Shown one piece after another: positions 14,790 to 26,519 of a stretch of 64,000 nt of DNA. Position 1 is the stretch's first letter; every line of letters starts with the position of its first letter. The position numbers and the translations under genes are program-made. This DNA is from Escherichia coli (GTDB taxonomy: Bacteria > Pseudomonadota > Gammaproteobacteria > Enterobacterales > Enterobacteriaceae), in the NCBI RefSeq assembly GCF_024223415.1, contig NZ_CP100500.1; one strand, 5' to 3'. The notes under the pieces were generated by a model, which saw only the letters and a list, made by a program, of their open reading frames with translations, searched no databases and had not been told where the DNA came from.

Positions 14790-15647
14790 TTAGCCCTGAA
14801 AACGGGCGCTGTACTCTCCCGGCGTCAGACCAAACTGACGCCGGAAAACGCGACAAAAATAGTCGCTATCCGGAAAACCGCAACGCTGTGCCACTTCATG
14901 AATTGACAGATGATATTTCTGCAAAATCATCCTCGCCTTCGCCATTCGCACCCAACGCACATACTCGATAAAACGCATCGTTCCATGCTGAGCAAACAGT
15001 TTTGACAGATGATTGGGCGTGATATTAAAAAACTGCGCCACGCTCTCGCGGGTGAGCGGCTGGGCATAATTATCCTGAACCCAGTTACAAATGCTGTGAT
15101 AGAGAAAATCGCCGCGCGGCTGCGAATTGCCCGGCGGCATATTCACCACGTTACGGCAAAGATGCAGCAAACTTAACACCAGCGGCTGAATGATATTTTG
15201 CTCCAGCGGCGAACGGCTAAGATGGGTGAGGGCGGTAAGCATCGCTTCACCTTCACCGCGTTGCAGGCTGGGAAGCTGGATCTGGCGAGCAGGATGCAAC
15301 AACGACGTGGTGCGGCTATCGTAAAACGATAACCCAAGCCAGGTCGGAGCGAACACCAGGCTTAACAGCATCACCGGTTTGTTGTTGACCGGTAAATTAG
15401 CCGCGCGTGCCGGAATAAACAGCATTTCTCCTTCCACCAAACGTTGCTGCTTTGCTTCCAGCAGATTGCCGTATTCGCCGCGCAGCACGATATCCAGACG
15501 GGGAAAATCAATACATAAACTGCCCACCGGCAACGAGGCAGGCTGGCTGGCAAACCAGACGCGCCCCAGTAGTTGCGGGTTAAGCACCAGGCCGCTGAAC
15601 AGATCGGCGAAAAATTGTTGATCGGCGGGCAAGCCTGGTGCTTTCAT
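14790..15647 (-). CDS. ypdC: AraC-family transcriptional regulator YpdC
   Basis: 285-aa ORF with a C-terminal AraC-type helix-turn-helix (HLSIHEVAQRCGFPDSDYFCRVFRRQFGLTPGEY). Confidence 0.85.
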   Translation of the reverse strand: MKAPGLPADQQFFADLFSGLVLNPQLLGRVWFASQPASLPVGSLCIDFPRLDIVLRGEYGNLLEAKQQRLVEGEMLFIPARAANLPVNNKPVMLLSLVFAPTWLGLSFYDSRTTSLLHPARQIQLPSLQRGEGEAMLTALTHLSRSPLEQNIIQPLVLSLLHLCRNVVNMPPGNSQPRGDFLYHSICNWVQDNYAQPLTRESVAQFFNITPNHLSKLFAQHGTMRFIEYVRWVRMAKARMILQKYHLSIHEVAQRCGFPDSDYFCRVFRRQFGLTPGEYSARFQG

Positions 15648-19740: not shown

Positions 19741-19770
19741 AAACAGGAGCCTGATGGCTCCTGTTTTTCA
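19741..19770. terminator. Rho-independent terminator after alaC
   Basis: Hairpin AAACAGGAGCC-TGAT-GGCTCCTGTTT followed by TTT; may also terminate ypdK from the other side. Confidence 0.65.
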
Positions 19771-20212: not shown

Positions 20213-21133
20213 TTAAATGTATAACGACGATTCTCCCACCGGGCGCGTTTTAAAGCGACGGTGGATCCAGAGGTACTGCTCCGGTGCGCGCATGATCTCT
20301 TTCTCGATAATCTTGTTCATATAGGCAGCGGCTTGATTTTCATCTGCCGGGTAGCCTTCCATCTCTGGGGTGATGAACAAACGATATCCGCTGTAATCCG
20401 CTTTTCTTACCATCGTTACGGTCAACATGGCTGCGCCAGAGAGACGGGAGAGAACATAGGTGCCATTGGTTGTGGCGACATTTTCTACCGCAAAGAACGG
20501 CGCGAAGGAGCTGCCTTTACGACCATAATCCTGATCGGGAGCAAACCATACCGCTTCACCTTTCTTCAGTGCACTGACAATGCCGCGCAGATTATTTCTG
20601 CCGATCATCGCTTTGTTAGAGCGCATGCGACCACGGGTCTGCACCCATTCCATCAGCTGATTATTATGTGGACGATAGGTAGCCATCATTGGCTGACAAA
20701 GTCCCATCACGCGGCCGCCCAGTTCCAGCGACATAAAATGGACGCCGACAACCATTACGCCGCGATTTTGCATTTGTGCGCGTTTAAGGTTATCCAGCCC
20801 TTCAACATCAAACCATTTACGTACGCGACTGTCGGGCCAGAACCACGCCATGCCGGTTTCTACCAACGCCATGCCGAGTGAACGAAAGTTTTCGGCAATC
20901 ATCTTCTCGCGTTCTTCCGCAGAATGCTGCGGGAAGCAAAGTTCCAGGTTTTTACGGGCGATAGATTCACGCCGTTTCAGGAATGGTCGCGCCATTGCGC
21001 CAATACGCGTGCCGAGAAAGCAGAGAACAGGATAAGGAAGCTGTACCCAAAGCCAGAGTACACCAAGCCCAAACCATGTGAGCCAGTAGCGAGGATGCAT
21101 AAACTCGCGGGAAAATTTGCATTGTGGAAACAT
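20213..21133 (-). CDS. lpxP: Cold-induced lipid A palmitoleoyltransferase LpxP
   Basis: ORF 20213..21199; LpxL/LpxP-family acyltransferase. The 306-aa protein from internal Met MFPQCKFSREFMHPRYWLTW matches LpxP, and the gene sits in the lpxP position next to alaC. Confidence 0.85.
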   Translation of the reverse strand: MFPQCKFSREFMHPRYWLTWFGLGVLWLWVQLPYPVLCFLGTRIGAMARPFLKRRESIARKNLELCFPQHSAEEREKMIAENFRSLGMALVETGMAWFWPDSRVRKWFDVEGLDNLKRAQMQNRGVMVVGVHFMSLELGGRVMGLCQPMMATYRPHNNQLMEWVQTRGRMRSNKAMIGRNNLRGIVSALKKGEAVWFAPDQDYGRKGSSFAPFFAVENVATTNGTYVLSRLSGAAMLTVTMVRKADYSGYRLFITPEMEGYPADENQAAAYMNKIIEKEIMRAPEQYLWIHRRFKTRPVGESSLYI

Positions 21134-21485
21134 AGTTACCTTCTGTAGATACGAATTGTTGTATCGCAGAAGATTCCATGTCGACAGCGGTACACTCAAT
21201 TGATTAGGCCATCATGTACGACAATGGTTCCTGTAAAGAGTGTAAAGACTAGTCAGGACATAACCACGAGGAGCATGAATGCGGTATCTGTACTTTATCA
21301 CTCGCTGACTGCTTTCAGCTACTGATTATTAATCGTGCAAAGTAAATATTTTTCCGTACACAACAGTCTTGCATTTAACATGCTGTTTTCATTGATGCTT
21401 AGCAAAAATTGCCAGAGGTTAAGGATTGTCTTACTATTAAAGTGACTGAAGTTACAGGTTTTTTAGCGCGGCAGGAGGTTGAGCT

Positions 21486-21728
21486 ATGATTTATTTATGG
21501 ATGTTTCTCGCCCTGTGTATTGTCTGCGTAAGCGGATACATCGGTCAGGTACTGAACGTGGTATCGGCGGTCTCTTCTTTCTTCGGCATGGTGATCCTCG
21601 CTGCACTCATTTATTACTTCACCATGTGGTTAACTGGCGGTAATGAACTGGTGACGGGGATATTTATGTTTCTTGCCCCGGCTTGTGGCTTGATGATTCG
21701 CTTTATGGTGGGGTATGGCAGGCGGTAG
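21486..21728 (+). CDS. yfdY: DUF2545 inner membrane protein YfdY
   Basis: 80-aa ORF with two to three predicted TM segments, in the yfdY position. Confidence 0.7.
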   Translation: MIYLWMFLALCIVCVSGYIGQVLNVVSAVSSFFGMVILAALIYYFTMWLTGGNELVTGIFMFLAPACGLMIRFMVGYGRR

Positions 21729-21804
21729 TGGGTCAGGATGGCTCATTTGGGCAGGTGTTCACATCACCATCAGACATGATTGTTCACCTGCCAGGTGACA
21801 GACG

Positions 21805-22080
21805 CTATCGCACAGGATGAATAAGATAATTCGCCTTTGTCGGAAAAGGGGGCGTGGTTTCTTCTGTGAGGTTTAATGGTGGCGCATCTTCTCTCATCTT
21901 AAACAAAATTGCCTGTGATGGCTGAAGTTTTGTAGAGTGAGTTGTCGTCATCGCTGATGTTTTTTCCGTCTCTTTATAGCTCCTCTCACTTCCACCACCA
22001 GAAATGGAAAATGCAAAAACATTGCATGCCATAATAGAGACCAATAAAAATAAGCTAAAAAGCATTAAGTTTACTTTCAT
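21805..22080 (-). CDS. ypdI: Small putative lipoprotein YpdI
   Basis: 91-aa ORF with a signal peptide and a Cys in a lipobox-like context (VSIMAC), in the ypdI position. Confidence 0.7.
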   Translation of the reverse strand: MKVNLMLFSLFLLVSIMACNVFAFSISGGGSERSYKETEKTSAMTTTHSTKLQPSQAILFKMREDAPPLNLTEETTPPFPTKANYLIHPVR

Positions 22081-22222
22081 AGAAAGTTATCCTGAAAATG
22101 GTTCACTGAAAACCTACGACGTTATGGCTGTATTTACATATAATTAATCAGTATTTACATCGATATAATAAATGACATCTCTTTGTGGTATATAAGAATA
22201 GTTCTCTGTGACAGGAAGCAGA

Positions 22223-22240
22223 TTCCTACAACTGTAAGAT
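22223..22240 (+). promoter_or_regulatory. EvgA box upstream of yfdX (site 1)
   Basis: TTCCTACA-AC-TGTAAGAT, an 18-bp inverted repeat of the EvgA-box form TTCYTACA-N2-TGTARGAA. Confidence 0.55.
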
Positions 22241-22261
22241 TAAAATACTTCTTGCGATAAT

Positions 22262-22279
22262 AACTACAAGTGTAAGATA
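22262..22279 (+). promoter_or_regulatory. EvgA box-like motif upstream of yfdX (site 2)
   Basis: AACTACA-AG-TGTAAGATA; right half-site matches well, left half is weaker. Confidence 0.4.
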
Positions 22280-22375
22280 ACCCTTTCAAAATGACCGTTG
22301 CTCTCTGATTTCTCATTTCATGCTCACCCAATATGATGGCGGCGTTTTCTAAAACTGTTAAAGAATGAGGTAAGT

Positions 22376-23008
22376 ATGAAACGTTTAATTATGGCTACGA
22401 TGGTCACAGCTATTCTGGCATCTTCAACTGTATGGGCTGCTGATAATGCACCGGTAGCGGCACAACAGCAAACTCAGCAAGTTCAGCAAACCCAGAAAAC
22501 GGCAGCAGCAGAGCGTATCTCTGAACAAGGTTTATATGCGATGCGTGACGTGCAGGTAGCGCGCCTGGCTCTGTTTCATGGCGATCCGGAAAAGGCAAAA
22601 GAACTGACCAATGAAGCTTCCGCTTTGTTGTCAGATGACAGTACCGAATGGGCAAAGTTCGCTAAGCCAGGTAAAAAGACCAATCTCAATGATGACCAAT
22701 ATATTGTCATTAATGCATCTGTCGGAATTTCTGAGAGTTATGTAGCGACACCCGAAAAAGAAGCCGCGATAAAAATTGCCAATGAAAAAATGGCGAAAGG
22801 GGATAAAAAGGGCGCAATGGAAGAGCTTCGCCTGGCCGGTGTTGGTGTAATGGAAAACCAATATCTGATGCCGCTTAAACAGACTCGTAATGCACTTGCT
22901 GATGCGCAGAAACTGCTTGATAAAAAGCAATACTACGAGGCAAACCTGGCGCTTAAAGGTGCGGAAGATGGAATCATCGTCGATAGCGAAGCACTGTTTG
23001 TGAACTAA
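22376..23008 (+). CDS. yfdX: Periplasmic YfdX-family protein (EvgA regulon)
   Basis: 210-aa ORF with a signal peptide ([21 protein letters not shown]); conserved position upstream of frc. Confidence 0.85.
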
Positions 23009-23251
23009 TGCTGACTGGCAGTATATTGAGGTAAAGGATTTAACTCCCTCCAGCCGACAATTTTTTATGACCACAATACGACAGGTTGTGGTCATAAAAT
23101 TATTTGGCGCTCGCTGTTCTATAAACTCGCATTTTATATTCCTCAAAGTAAACCGCAATAATCCCGTGTCATCACAAATCATTTAATATGTTATATTTTA
23201 TGGTACGCTTTAAAAAGCGTAATCATACCCTTACTTGTAAATCACCGGCGC

Positions 23252-23269
23252 TTCTTACAGTTGTAAGAA
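23252..23269 (+). promoter_or_regulatory. EvgA box upstream of frc
   Basis: TTCTTACA-GT-TGTAAGAA: the two 8-nt halves are exact reverse complements, and it lies about 250 nt upstream of frc. Confidence 0.6.
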
Positions 23270-23520
23270 TAACATCACAAATGTCGCGGCTCTCTCTGAT
23301 TACCGCGAACCAATATTTATCATATTCTTCTTTTCGTCCTCACTACTTACCATGCAGAAAGGAATTGGAAGTGGCGATGAAATGATTTTCAGCACTTGAT
23401 ACAGGAATTTAAAAATATCGAGTGCCGCTACGACGATATTTTGCGGATTATTTATAGAGGGCGTTATGCCTTAAATAAACGCTAAATTAACACATATTTA
23501 ATTAACTAATAGGTATTGCT

Positions 23521-24771
23521 ATGTCAACTCCACTTCAAGGAATTAAAGTTCTCGATTTCACCGGTGTGCAATCTGGCCCATCTTGTACTCAAATGCTGGC
23601 CTGGTTTGGCGCTGACGTCATTAAAATTGAACGCCCCGGCGTTGGTGACGTAACGCGTCACCAGCTGCGAGATATTCCTGATATCGATGCGCTTTACTTC
23701 ACCATGCTTAACAGTAACAAACGTTCTATTGAGTTAAATACCAAAACAGCGGAAGGCAAAGAGGTAATGGAAAAGCTGATCCGCGAAGCTGATATCTTAG
23801 TCGAGAACTTTCATCCAGGGGCCATTGATCACATGGGTTTCACCTGGGAGCATATTCAAGAAATCAATCCACGTCTGATTTTTGGTTCGATCAAAGGGTT
23901 TGATGAGTGTTCGCCTTATGTGAATGTAAAAGCCTATGAAAACGTTTCTCAGGCAGCGGGTGGCGCGGCATCCACTACGGGTTTTTGGGACGGTCCGCCG
24001 CTGGTAAGCGCTGCAGCGTTAGGAGACAGCAACACCGGAATGCATTTGCTGATCGGTTTACTTGCTGCTTTGCTGCATCGCGAAAAAACGGGGCGTGGGC
24101 AACGAGTCACCATGTCAATGCAGGATGCCGTATTGAACCTTTGCCGCGTGAAATTACGCGACCAGCAGCGTCTCGATAAATTGGGTTATCTGGAAGAATA
24201 CCCGCAGTATCCGAATGGTACATTTGGTGATGCAGTTCCCCGTGGTGGTAATGCGGGTGGTGGCGGTCAACCTGGATGGATCCTGAAATGTAAAGGCTGG
24301 GAAACAGATCCTAACGCCTATATTTATTTCACTATTCAGGAGCAAAACTGGGAAAACACCTGTAAAGCCATCGGCAAACCAGATTGGATTACCGATCCGG
24401 CATACAGTACAGCCCATGCCCGACAGCCACATATTTTCGATATTTTTGCTGAAATCGAAAAATACACTGTCACTATTGATAAACATGAAGCGGTGGCCTA
24501 TTTGACTCAATTTGATATTCCTTGTGCACCGGTTTTAAGTATGAAAGAAATTTCACTTGATCCCTCTTTGCGCCAAAGTGGCAGTGTTGTCGAAGTGGAA
24601 CAACCGTTGCGTGGAAAATATCTGACAGTTGGTTGTCCAATGAAATTCTCTGCCTTTACGCCAGATATTAAAGCTGCGCCGCTATTAGGTGAACATACCG
24701 CTGCTGTATTGCAGGAGCTGGGTTATAGCGACGATGAAATTGCTGCAATGAAGCAAAACCACGCCATCTGA
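23521..24771 (+). CDS. frc: Formyl-CoA:oxalate CoA-transferase (family III CoA transferase)
   Basis: 416-aa ORF starting [40 protein letters not shown], matching Frc/YfdW. Confidence 0.95.
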
Positions 24772-24824
24772 TATTAACGGGGGCTTCTGGCTCCCAATTT
24801 ATAAAAATTTCGAGGTTATTAATC

Positions 24825-26519
24825 ATGTCAGATCAACTTCAAATGACAGATGGTATGCATATCATCGTTGAAGCATTAAAACAGAATAATATTGACACTA
24901 TTTATGGTGTTGTAGGTATTCCTGTGACGGATATGGCGCGCCATGCCCAGGCGGAAGGCATTCGTTATATTGGTTTTCGTCATGAGCAGTCGGCAGGCTA
25001 TGCCGCTGCGGCAAGCGGTTTTCTTACCCAAAAACCAGGGATCTGCCTGACAGTGTCTGCGCCAGGATTCCTCAATGGTTTGACCGCATTGGCCAACGCA
25101 ACGGTAAATGGTTTTCCGATGATCATGATTAGCGGCTCCAGCGACCGCGCGATCGTCGACCTACAGCAAGGTGATTATGAAGAGCTGGACCAAATGAATG
25201 CGGCAAAACCGTATGCCAAAGCAGCATTTCGCGTTAATCAGCCGCAGGATCTTGGCATTGCATTGGCACGCGCTATCCGGGTCTCAGTATCGGGTCGCCC
25301 TGGCGGAGTTTATCTTGATTTGCCAGCAAATGTCCTGGCCGCGACGATGGAAAAAGACGAAGCGTTAACCACGATTGTAAAAGTTGAAAATCCGTCGCCA
25401 GCATTATTGCCATGCCCGAAGTCAGTCACTAGCGCAATTTCGCTTTTAGCAAAAGCTGAACGGCCATTAATTATCCTTGGCAAAGGCGCGGCGTATTCAC
25501 AAGCTGACGAACAACTTCGTGAATTTATTGAAAGTGCCCAGATTCCATTCCTGCCAATGTCTATGGCGAAAGGGATCCTCGAAGATACGCATCCACTTTC
25601 TGCGGCAGCTGCGCGTTCGTTTGCCCTGGCAAATGCTGACGTTGTCATGCTTGTTGGTGCACGACTGAATTGGTTACTGGCACACGGTAAAAAAGGATGG
25701 GCGGCAGATACACAGTTTATTCAACTGGATATTGAACCGCAGGAAATTGACAGCAACCGCCCCATTGCTGTGCCAGTCGTTGGCGATATTGCATCCAGTA
25801 TGCAAGGTATGCTGGCAGAACTGAAACAAAACACATTTACGACTCCACTGGTATGGCGCGATATTTTAAATATCCACAAGCAGCAAAATGCACAAAAAAT
25901 GCATGAAAAATTAAGTACAGATACCCAACCATTAAATTACTTTAATGCATTAAGTGCTGTGCGCGATGTATTGCGTGAGAACCAGTATATTTATTTAGTT
26001 AATGAAGGTGCAAATACCCTGGATAATGCACGAAATATTATTGATATGTATAAACCACGTCGTCGTCTGGATTGTGGTACCTGGGGTGTCATGGGCATCG
26101 GTATGGGCTATGCCATCGGTGCTAGCGTGACCTCTGGTTCTCCGGTTGTCGCCATTGAAGGTGATAGTGCTTTTGGTTTCAGTGGGATGGAGATTGAAAC
26201 GATTTGTCGATATAACCTGCCGGTGACGATCGTTATTTTTAATAATGGCGGCATCTACAGAGGAGACGGTGTTGATCTCAGTGGCGCTGGTGCACCATCA
26301 CCAACAGATCTGTTGCACCATGCAAGGTATGACAAATTAATGGATGCGTTTCGTGGCGTTGGCTATAACGTCACCACGACAGATGAACTTCGTCATGCTT
26401 TAACCACCGGTATTCAGTCGCGCAAACCGACCATTATTAATGTGGTCATCGACCCTGCAGCAGGAACTGAAAGTGGCCATATTACCAAACTTAACCCAAA
26501 ACAAGTCGCTGGTAATTAA
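24825..26519 (+). CDS. oxc: Oxalyl-CoA decarboxylase (ThDP-dependent)
   Basis: 564-aa ORF with ThDP-enzyme organisation and a GDSAFGF-type ThDP-binding motif, directly after frc. Confidence 0.95.
   Translation: MSDQLQMTDGMHIIVEALKQNNIDTIYGVVGIPVTDMARHAQAEGIRYIGFRHEQSAGYAAAASGFLTQKPGICLTVSAPGFLNGLTALANATVNGFPMIMISGSSDRAIVDLQQGDYEELDQMNAAKPYAKAAFRVNQPQDLGIALARAIRVSVSGRPGGVYLDLPANVLAATMEKDEALTTIVKVENPSPALLPCPKSVTSAISLLAKAERPLIILGKGAAYSQADEQLREFIESAQIPFLPMSMAKGILEDTHPLSAAAARSFALANADVVMLVGARLNWLLAHGKKGWAADTQFIQLDIEPQEIDSNRPIAVPVVGDIASSMQGMLAELKQNTFTTPLVWRDILNIHKQQNAQKMHEKLSTDTQPLNYFNALSAVRDVLRENQYIYLVNEGANTLDNARNIIDMYKPRRRLDCGTWGVMGIGMGYAIGASVTSGSPVVAIEGDSAFGFSGMEIETICRYNLPVTIVIFNNGGIYRGDGVDLSGAGAPSPTDLLHHARYDKLMDAFRGVGYNVTTTDELRHALTTGIQSRKPTIINVVIDPAAGTESGHITKLNPKQVAGN

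Follow-up and report, generated by a model that had tools for sequence, protein, structure and literature searches.

The window analyzed here is a 64,000-nt stretch of Escherichia coli DNA (RefSeq assembly GCF_024223415.1, contig NZ_CP100500.1) that comprises the lpxP/yfdY/ypdI/yfdX/frc/oxc region. On its plus strand, yfdX (22376-23008; 210 aa) is followed by frc (23521-24771), which encodes formyl-CoA transferase, and by oxc, which starts at 24825. The assignments of yfdX and frc come from the open reading frame list and from the RefSeq annotation of E. coli loci, in which the product of yfdX is a "YfdX family protein" at identical or near-identical loci. The 512-nt spacer between yfdX and frc contains a long perfect hairpin (23063-23099), under which RefSeq holds no annotated feature. 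In MG1655, this hairpin occupies positions 2493676-2493712 on the minus strand.

Two frc promoter elements lie 3' of the hairpin. A promoter scan identifies a sigma-70 promoter-like site, TTTATA-18-AATAAT (23133-23162, plus strand), and an inverted-repeat search identifies TTCTTACA-GT-TGTAAGAA (23252-23269, plus strand) in the frc (yfdW) promoter, which matches the EvgA-box consensus TTCYTACA-N2-TGTARGAA. A second EvgA-box-like repeat, TTCCTACA-AC-TGTAAGAT, is located upstream of yfdX at about 22225-22242. The TTTATA and AATAAT hexamers are those given for the frc "constitutive promoter" in RpoD genomic SELEX, and H-NS has been noted for the yfdX-frc spacer (PMC3946193). EvgA binds inverted repeats both upstream of yfdX and upstream of yfdWUVE (PMC3720670). 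The literature is inconsistent as to the operon, which is described either as yfdXWUVE or as yfdX plus yfdWUVE. The hairpin is the last element of the yfdX unit, and all known or predicted frc promoters lie beyond it, in keeping with its initial annotation as an element between yfdX and the frc promoter, and a scan finds it to be the sole terminator-like site in the spacer.

The hairpin was initially annotated as a perfect 10-bp stem about 60 nt after the yfdX stop codon. This stem is exact, being composed of ATGACCACAA (23067-23076), the loop TACGACAGG (23077-23085), and TTGTGGTCAT (23086-23095), and it begins 59 nt after the end of the stop codon at 23008. Its length was understated: the T-run and the A-run that flank the 10-bp stem pair with each other, so that the perfect inverted repeat is 14 bp long and starts 55 nt after the stop codon. 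The annotated end at 23098 already included three of the four A residues that follow the 10-bp stem. The left arm, TTTTATGACCACAA (23063-23076), holds a covarying position, 23070, whose partner in the right arm, TTGTGGTCATAAAA (23086-23099), is position 23092, a T that is replaced by C in a compensated variant. The 9-nt loop is free to vary, and T23077 and G23085 at its two ends can form a U.G closing pair, giving 15 pairs in the RNA fold. Directly after the stem is a U-rich tail, TTATTTGG (23100-23107), which provides a weak, intrinsic-terminator-like context in E. coli only.

Folded as plus-strand RNA, the sequence has an energy of -20.3 kcal/mol, compared with -7.3 +/- 2.3 kcal/mol for shuffled sequences (z = -5.65); the minus-strand fold is weaker, at -16.6 kcal/mol. 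Dinucleotide shuffling of the 64-kb window, repeated 100 times, produced no perfect hairpin of at least 14 bp, and a shuffled window is expected to contain the pattern 0.01 times. The real window contains six distinct perfect hairpins of at least 10 bp, this one included. The hairpin is not a chance feature. Within the window it occurs once, even when up to three mismatches are allowed, and E. coli genomes contain it in one place each at E <= 1e-3. A laxer search of the E. coli genomes returned a median of two places, most likely the result of the palindrome matching its own other strand at a lax E-value. A search of positions 21000-25000 against Rfam 15 gave no match on either strand at E <= 10, and the hairpin does not belong to an RNA family described there by a covariance model.

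Several other assignments were considered and set aside. A 39-aa open reading frame that starts at an ATG in the hairpin (23067-23186) has no Shine-Dalgarno sequence, is stopped after four codons in Yersinia, and lacks the ATG in the distant relative L031 described below. An outer helix around the hairpin, GCCGA/UUGGC, gave an energy gain no better than that of shuffled flanks in 7 of 7 sequences. The loop, which is not conserved, could pair with 22943-22951 over 9 nt, one of them mismatched; this was treated as chance. A mobile-element end or a dispersed repeat is at odds with the single occurrence in the window and the single location in each E. coli genome. The only match in a viral contig falls in an AT-rich repeat of a giant-virus MAG, in a different context, and was judged to be chance.

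Of 5,426 complete E. coli genomes, 5,412 contain the spacer, in most cases 95-99% identical to the window, and about 5,404 (~99.6%) contain the hairpin. Among seven diverse E. coli strains, none of the 37 columns of the hairpin varies, compared with 46 of 475 in the rest of the spacer (one-sided Fisher p = 0.027), and the invariant run that contains it, 23062-23108, is the second longest in the spacer for these strains. Of 5,405 matching records, 4,666 are identical to the window across the approximately 47 nt of 23058-23105. The most frequent departure is a loop change, G23085A, in 397 genomes, which converts the U.G closing pair to U-A. It is followed by a double change within the stem, A23070G with T23092C, in 257 genomes, which replaces one A-U pair with G-C, and by T23062A, just outside the stem, in 19 genomes; about 65 matching genomes carry variants other than these. 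Neither A23070G alone nor T23092C alone was found in any E. coli genome matching the full length of 23058-23105. Four carriers of the double change that were compared have a common local haplotype, with up to 12 of 550 positions different among them, and the 257 G-C carriers probably represent one old event rather than many. The double change is a natural, within-species compensatory base-pair change that may serve as a teaching or benchmarking case.

Two strains deserve a separate description. In E. coli SCPM-O-B-8794 (L007, 3628-4150), which has a YfdX 99% identical to that of the window, the spacer is more diverged than in the seven strains; the hairpin arms are intact, and the loop differs at two positions. 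In strain 730V1 (E. coli O19:H7; L021, 280-360 and 1500-1560), an IS5 lies between the yfdX stop codon and the hairpin, where it separates GGATTTAA from GGAAGGTGCG, and an IS903B lies exactly at the junction of the loop and the right arm, between TACGACAGG and GGCTTTGTTG. These insertions destroy the hairpin and separate yfdX from frc.

Outside E. coli, the hairpin is found in Yersinia vastinensis, Y. alsatica, and a related Yersinia lineage (L029 and L030). All of them carry a yfdX-frc-oxc island whose YfdX shares 83-84% identity with that of E. coli. IS1 and IS3 genes flank the island, and the cluster looks like a horizontally acquired island; in Y. alsatica and related contigs (L023-L028), the IS1 and IS3-family transposase genes are directly upstream of yfdX. 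Only three blocks of the Yersinia spacer align with that of E. coli: the hairpin, the EvgA-box promoter region, and the ribosome-binding region of frc. Both 14-nt arms are identical (28 of 28 positions) in Y. vastinensis, Y. alsatica, and E. coli. The loop differs at four of nine positions, the flanks are unalignable, and the tail reads CTCTCTGT in place of TTATTTGG. In the L029/L030 lineage, the equivalent of position 23070 is G and the T opposite is kept, creating a G.U wobble. This wobble pairs in the plus-strand RNA only and is an A.C mismatch on the minus strand, with L029 folding energies of -18.1 and -12.8 kcal/mol for the plus and minus strands, respectively.

A more distant relative with the hairpin, L031, derives from a metagenome and encodes a YfdX that is 68% identical to that of E. 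coli, within the gene order hdeA-hdeD-yfdX-frc. Its spacer is 785 nt long and G+C-rich, with a recognizable EvgA-box-like promoter block. The frc EvgA box and the approximately 50 nt that follow it (including CTCTCTGATTAC) are kept in the Yersinia islands and can also be recognized in L031. In L031, GCCGACAAT is kept upstream and is followed by GGCCACAACC-ACGGAAC-GGTTGTGGCC. The resulting stem has the same CCACAA/TTGTGG core, with G-C at the variable pair, and is rebuilt around it into 10 G+C-rich pairs, with two new C-G pairs on top and the bottom pairs gone. The spacing between the two halves of the core is 11 nt, compared with 9 nt in E. coli and Yersinia, and the stem is followed by ATGTCCTG, without a T-tract. 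The rebuilt stem, the altered spacing, and the lack of a T-tract fit a hairpin, and fit neither an operator nor a canonical terminator.

Across the eight distinct sequences available, 94% of the cells are paired, compared with 35-50% when the partner columns are slid. The covariation is thin, with just one pair changed on both sides among these eight sequences: 23070:23092 is A-U in most E. coli, G-C in 257 E. coli genomes and in L031, and G.U in the L029 lineage. The identity of the arms between E. coli and Yersinia beside unalignable flanks, together with the retention of the hairpin in ~99.6% of E. coli genomes, argues for purifying selection acting on the stem.

The distribution of the hairpin among relatives follows the layout of the spacer. 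In six further lineages with the order hdeA-hdeD-yfdX-frc (L035 and L039-L043), yfdX and frc are only about 115-125 nt apart, no EvgA-box-like repeat was seen in the spacer, the CCACAA hairpin is absent, and frc is presumably co-transcribed with yfdX. The short spacers of L035 and L043 contain other strong hairpins (z = -3.35 and z = -3.0, respectively), that of L042 is marginal, and in L039 no significant structure follows yfdX (z = -0.46). In both Buttiauxella and Klebsiella, REP-like repeats or a G+C-rich hairpin unrelated to this one come after yfdX, and a convergent sensor kinase gene lies beyond them. E. coli, Yersinia, and L031 all combine the CCACAA/TTGTGG hairpin with a long spacer that contains an EvgA-box promoter. 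The hairpin thus travels with the arrangement of a long spacer plus a promoter dedicated to frc.

[quoted passage not shown] The spacer of L035 contains, at 760-800, CACAA-G-GCCATATGC-ATAAACG-GCATATGGC-G-TTGT, with a decayed version at about 2685-2720 in L039-L041. The CACAA/TTGT base of this element resembles the top of the E. coli stem. Homology between the L035/L039 hairpin and that of E. coli was considered; the two have the CACAA...TTGT base in common and differ in their apical helix, so that the resemblance is suggestive rather than demonstrable.

These observations bear on whether the hairpin has a function at all. The palindrome could be kept by quasi-palindrome template switching, or it could be a relic of the insertion that produced the long spacer, an origin consistent with the contrast between this spacer and the short ones that share the resemblance over the last ~30 nt. 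The double change in E. coli, which lacks intermediates, is the outcome expected of templated correction, and it could have arisen by template switching without selection. The IS903B in the loop of 730V1 indicates further that disruption is tolerated in at least one strain. A structure without function is nonetheless improbable: the arms are identical at 28 of 28 positions between E. coli and Yersinia while the loop has diverged and the adjacent flanks are unalignable, and the hairpin is kept in about 5,404 of 5,426 genomes. In addition, the G.U pair of L029 has stayed uncorrected, and thus templated correction is not obligatory, and the single-copy nature of the hairpin identifies it as neither an IS end nor a MITE end.

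A protein-binding palindrome was among the roles proposed in the initial annotation, and it corresponds to a DNA operator at which a dimeric regulator would control the downstream frc promoters. The hairpin is a perfect palindrome about 35 nt upstream of the sigma-70 -35 hexamer, in a spacer for which H-NS has been noted (PMC3946193), and its CCACAA/TTGTGG core is conserved in sequence, and not merely in pairing, in three lineages; an operator therefore keeps a small probability. The evolution of the arms disfavors this role. Operators have half-sites at a fixed spacing that evolve independently of pairing, whereas here the distance between the conserved cores shifts from 9 to 11 nt in L031, and the changes in the arms preserve pairing, being either coordinated (G-C) or a one-strand wobble (G.U), which is not expected of independent half-sites. 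Moreover, arms of 14 nt around a 9-nt gap are an unusual operator geometry, no second site is found in the window or the genome, and there is no resemblance to the EvgA box. Similar to the hairpin, the EvgA box is a conserved inverted repeat in the yfdX-frc spacer that is retained in Yersinia. The hairpin differs from it in sequence, in its longer arms, and in a gap of 9 nt rather than 2 nt; the geometry of the EvgA box is fixed in E. coli and Yersinia, whereas the core spacing of the hairpin varies among lineages. We regard an operator as very improbable.

The invariance of the CCACAA/UUGUGG core in E. coli, Yersinia, and L031, around which the stem ends and the loop have changed, may also point to a hairpin that is read by both sequence and shape. 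Such a hairpin would be the site for a dedicated RNA-binding factor or RNase that sets the ratio of yfdX to frc-oxc in the EvgA acid response. We put this forward as a highly speculative reading.

Intrinsic terminators are typically found where the hairpin is, between the end of a gene and the following promoter. The initial annotation dismissed this role on the ground that the stem is preceded by a T-run and followed by A-rich sequence, the reverse of the required context. Canonical terminators are indeed arranged as an A-tract and a U-tract, and the yfdX hairpin shows the reverse order, with the T-run upstream and the A-run downstream. As these two runs lengthen the stem, the sequence left behind it is TTATTTGG, with five T residues in eight, and a consensus scan calls the 15 pairs and this tail terminator-like on the plus strand. 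The dismissal is thus upheld only in part, by the lack of conservation of the tail outside E. coli. An efficient, self-sufficient intrinsic (Rho-independent) terminator would end yfdX transcription at about 23105-23108, and the presence of a hairpin on the sense strand after the gene is as in canonical terminators. The hairpin is stable (-18 to -20 kcal/mol) and correctly placed, but its composition is unlike theirs: A and U predominate in the stem, where G-C accounts for only 4 of 14 pairs and the base beside the tail consists of six A-U pairs. Canonical terminators also have a U-tract of ~7-9 nt that is conserved with the stem, and here the stem is kept in Yersinia and L031 with CTCTCTGT and ATGTCCTG, respectively, as the tails. 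Since the tail differs in these relatives while the stem is kept, the conserved part of the element is not the part that defines a terminator.

The hairpin was also compared with the five other perfect hairpins of at least 10 bp in the window (14819-14844, 19741-19766, 45491-45522, 47262-47290, and 53640-53672). Four of the five have T-runs and the appearance of classic intrinsic terminators, partly bidirectional; the fifth, at 14819 (CCGGCGTCAG and CTGACGCCGG), is G+C-rich and lacks a T-tract on both strands. On a rough d'Aubenton-Carafa-type discriminant, calculated from the hairpin energy per nucleotide and a weighted T count with modern energy parameters, the yfdX hairpin scores -16.9, which is below threshold, whereas four of the other five reach +0.8 to +30; the scores are approximate and serve only for ranking within the window. 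A terminator on the minus strand was also considered and rejected, as the hairpin is followed there by AAAAAATTG and the score is far below threshold. Taken together, these comparisons make an efficient intrinsic terminator unlikely, albeit a reading that retains some weight.

Stem-loops of another kind combine stability with the lack of a U-tract. As reported by Dar and Sorek, E. coli transcripts that are terminated by Rho end at stable, U-tract-less stem-loops with C-over-G sequence downstream; trimming of the transcripts by PNPase and RNase II stops at the stem-loops, and at weakly U-rich ones inefficient intrinsic termination may act together with Rho (PMC6061677). Similar to these stem-loops, the yfdX hairpin is stable, is located soon after a stop codon, and has a tail that is U-poor or weakly U-rich and not conserved. 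C also exceeds G immediately downstream, within a long untranslated stretch where Rho could load. The C-rich, G-poor region at 23100-23199 on the plus strand, a candidate rut-like (Rho-loading) region, contains 21 C and 11 G, a skew of 0.31 that corresponds to the 98.9th percentile of the 100-nt plus-strand windows. The corresponding skews in Yersinia are 0.47-0.50; L031 shows a weak skew over 100 nt, although its first ~30 nt are C-rich. Counting against this likeness, the downstream region of E. coli is AT-rich and has just 21% C. With its moderately U-rich tail, the E. coli hairpin may represent the intermediate case of inefficient intrinsic termination plus Rho described by those authors (PMC6061677).

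The reading that we favor, with confidence slightly above even, is that the hairpin is a stem-loop that defines the 3' end of the yfdX mRNA and protects it from exonucleases, that it is at most a weak intrinsic terminator, and that Rho probably terminates transcription downstream. The hairpin of 14-15 bp would form 55 nt after the stop codon once yfdX is transcribed from its EvgA-dependent promoter. In E. coli, the weak U-rich tail might stop transcription at this point inefficiently; more likely, Rho would end it slightly further on, in the long untranslated, C-rich and G-poor spacer, the 512 nt of which are where Rho is expected to act. Exonucleases working 3' to 5' would then trim the transcript back to the hairpin. 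The yfdX mRNA would be monocistronic, its 3' end fixed and protected by the hairpin, with the separate promoters of frc-oxc-yfdVE lying further downstream. It is from structure, conservation, pair-preserving variation, strand preference, position, and base composition that we infer transcript ends at the hairpin, the involvement of Rho, and stabilization of the message. The initial annotation had named an RNA stability element as one option, and this option is favored by the stem-specific conservation, the compensatory G-C pair, the G.U pair that forms on the plus strand only, the loss of the T-tail in relatives, and the excess of C over G downstream. Some observations count against the protective stem-loop. 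The CCACAA/TTGTGG core is kept in sequence across three lineages beyond what a purely structural need would impose, and some short-spacer relatives, such as L039, have no significant structure after yfdX. The E. coli Term-seq study of Adams et al. (2021) has, in its supplements, no 3' end at about 2493667-2493712 of MG1655 and no entry across 24934xx-24937xx; this is uninformative rather than negative, as yfdX is poorly expressed without EvgA induction. A literature search returned no description of the hairpin, no sRNA, and no Rho data for yfdX.

If transcription reads through into frc, the hairpin could act instead as an intercistronic processing element or a 5'-stabilizing element on yfdX-frc transcripts, for example by marking a boundary, set by RNase III or RNase E, across which yfdX and frc-oxc-yfdVE would decay independently. 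The literature does describe yfdXWUVE as one operon, besides yfdX plus yfdWUVE, and the short-spacer relatives, which presumably co-transcribe yfdX and frc, include two with strong hairpins (L035, z = -3.35; L043, z = -3.0). A stem of 14-15 bp is short for RNase III, however, and lengthening it by the outer helix is no better than with shuffled flanks. The chance that the hairpin is such an element seems slim.

REP/BIME elements, such as that between malE and malF, are intercistronic mRNA stabilizers. The yfdX hairpin resembles them in being a palindrome that lies outside genes, between two of the same orientation, and in its potential to block 3' exonucleases. Unlike these dispersed palindromes, which occur in many copies with a common consensus, it is present in a single copy per genome, has no REP consensus, and is A+U-rich. 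The REP-like repeats found after yfdX in Buttiauxella are unrelated to it in sequence.

The hairpin is a previously unannotated member of a well-known kind of element and involves no new mechanism. Its consequence is modest: it helps to place a transcription-unit boundary within the EvgA-regulated oxalate and acid-tolerance cluster, with yfdX on its own message and frc-oxc-yfdVE driven by promoters downstream of the hairpin.

Three minor observations concern the surroundings of the hairpin and the distribution of yfdX. A small perfect palindrome, TACGCTTT-AA-AAAGCGTA, is present in the spacer at 23204-23221; it is broken in CFT073-type strains (TACGCTTTAAATAGTGTA) and absent in Yersinia, and is probably not constrained. 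The dRNA-seq table of Adams et al. (2021) includes an "internal" 5' end at MG1655 position 2494302 on the minus strand (approximately position 22476 of the window), 100 nt inside yfdX. Finally, a 241-bp scaffold of Limosilactobacillus vaginalis DSM 5837 (L015) carries the coding sequence for the final 54 residues of YfdX, 100% identical to those of E. coli, and is almost certainly an assembly contamination.
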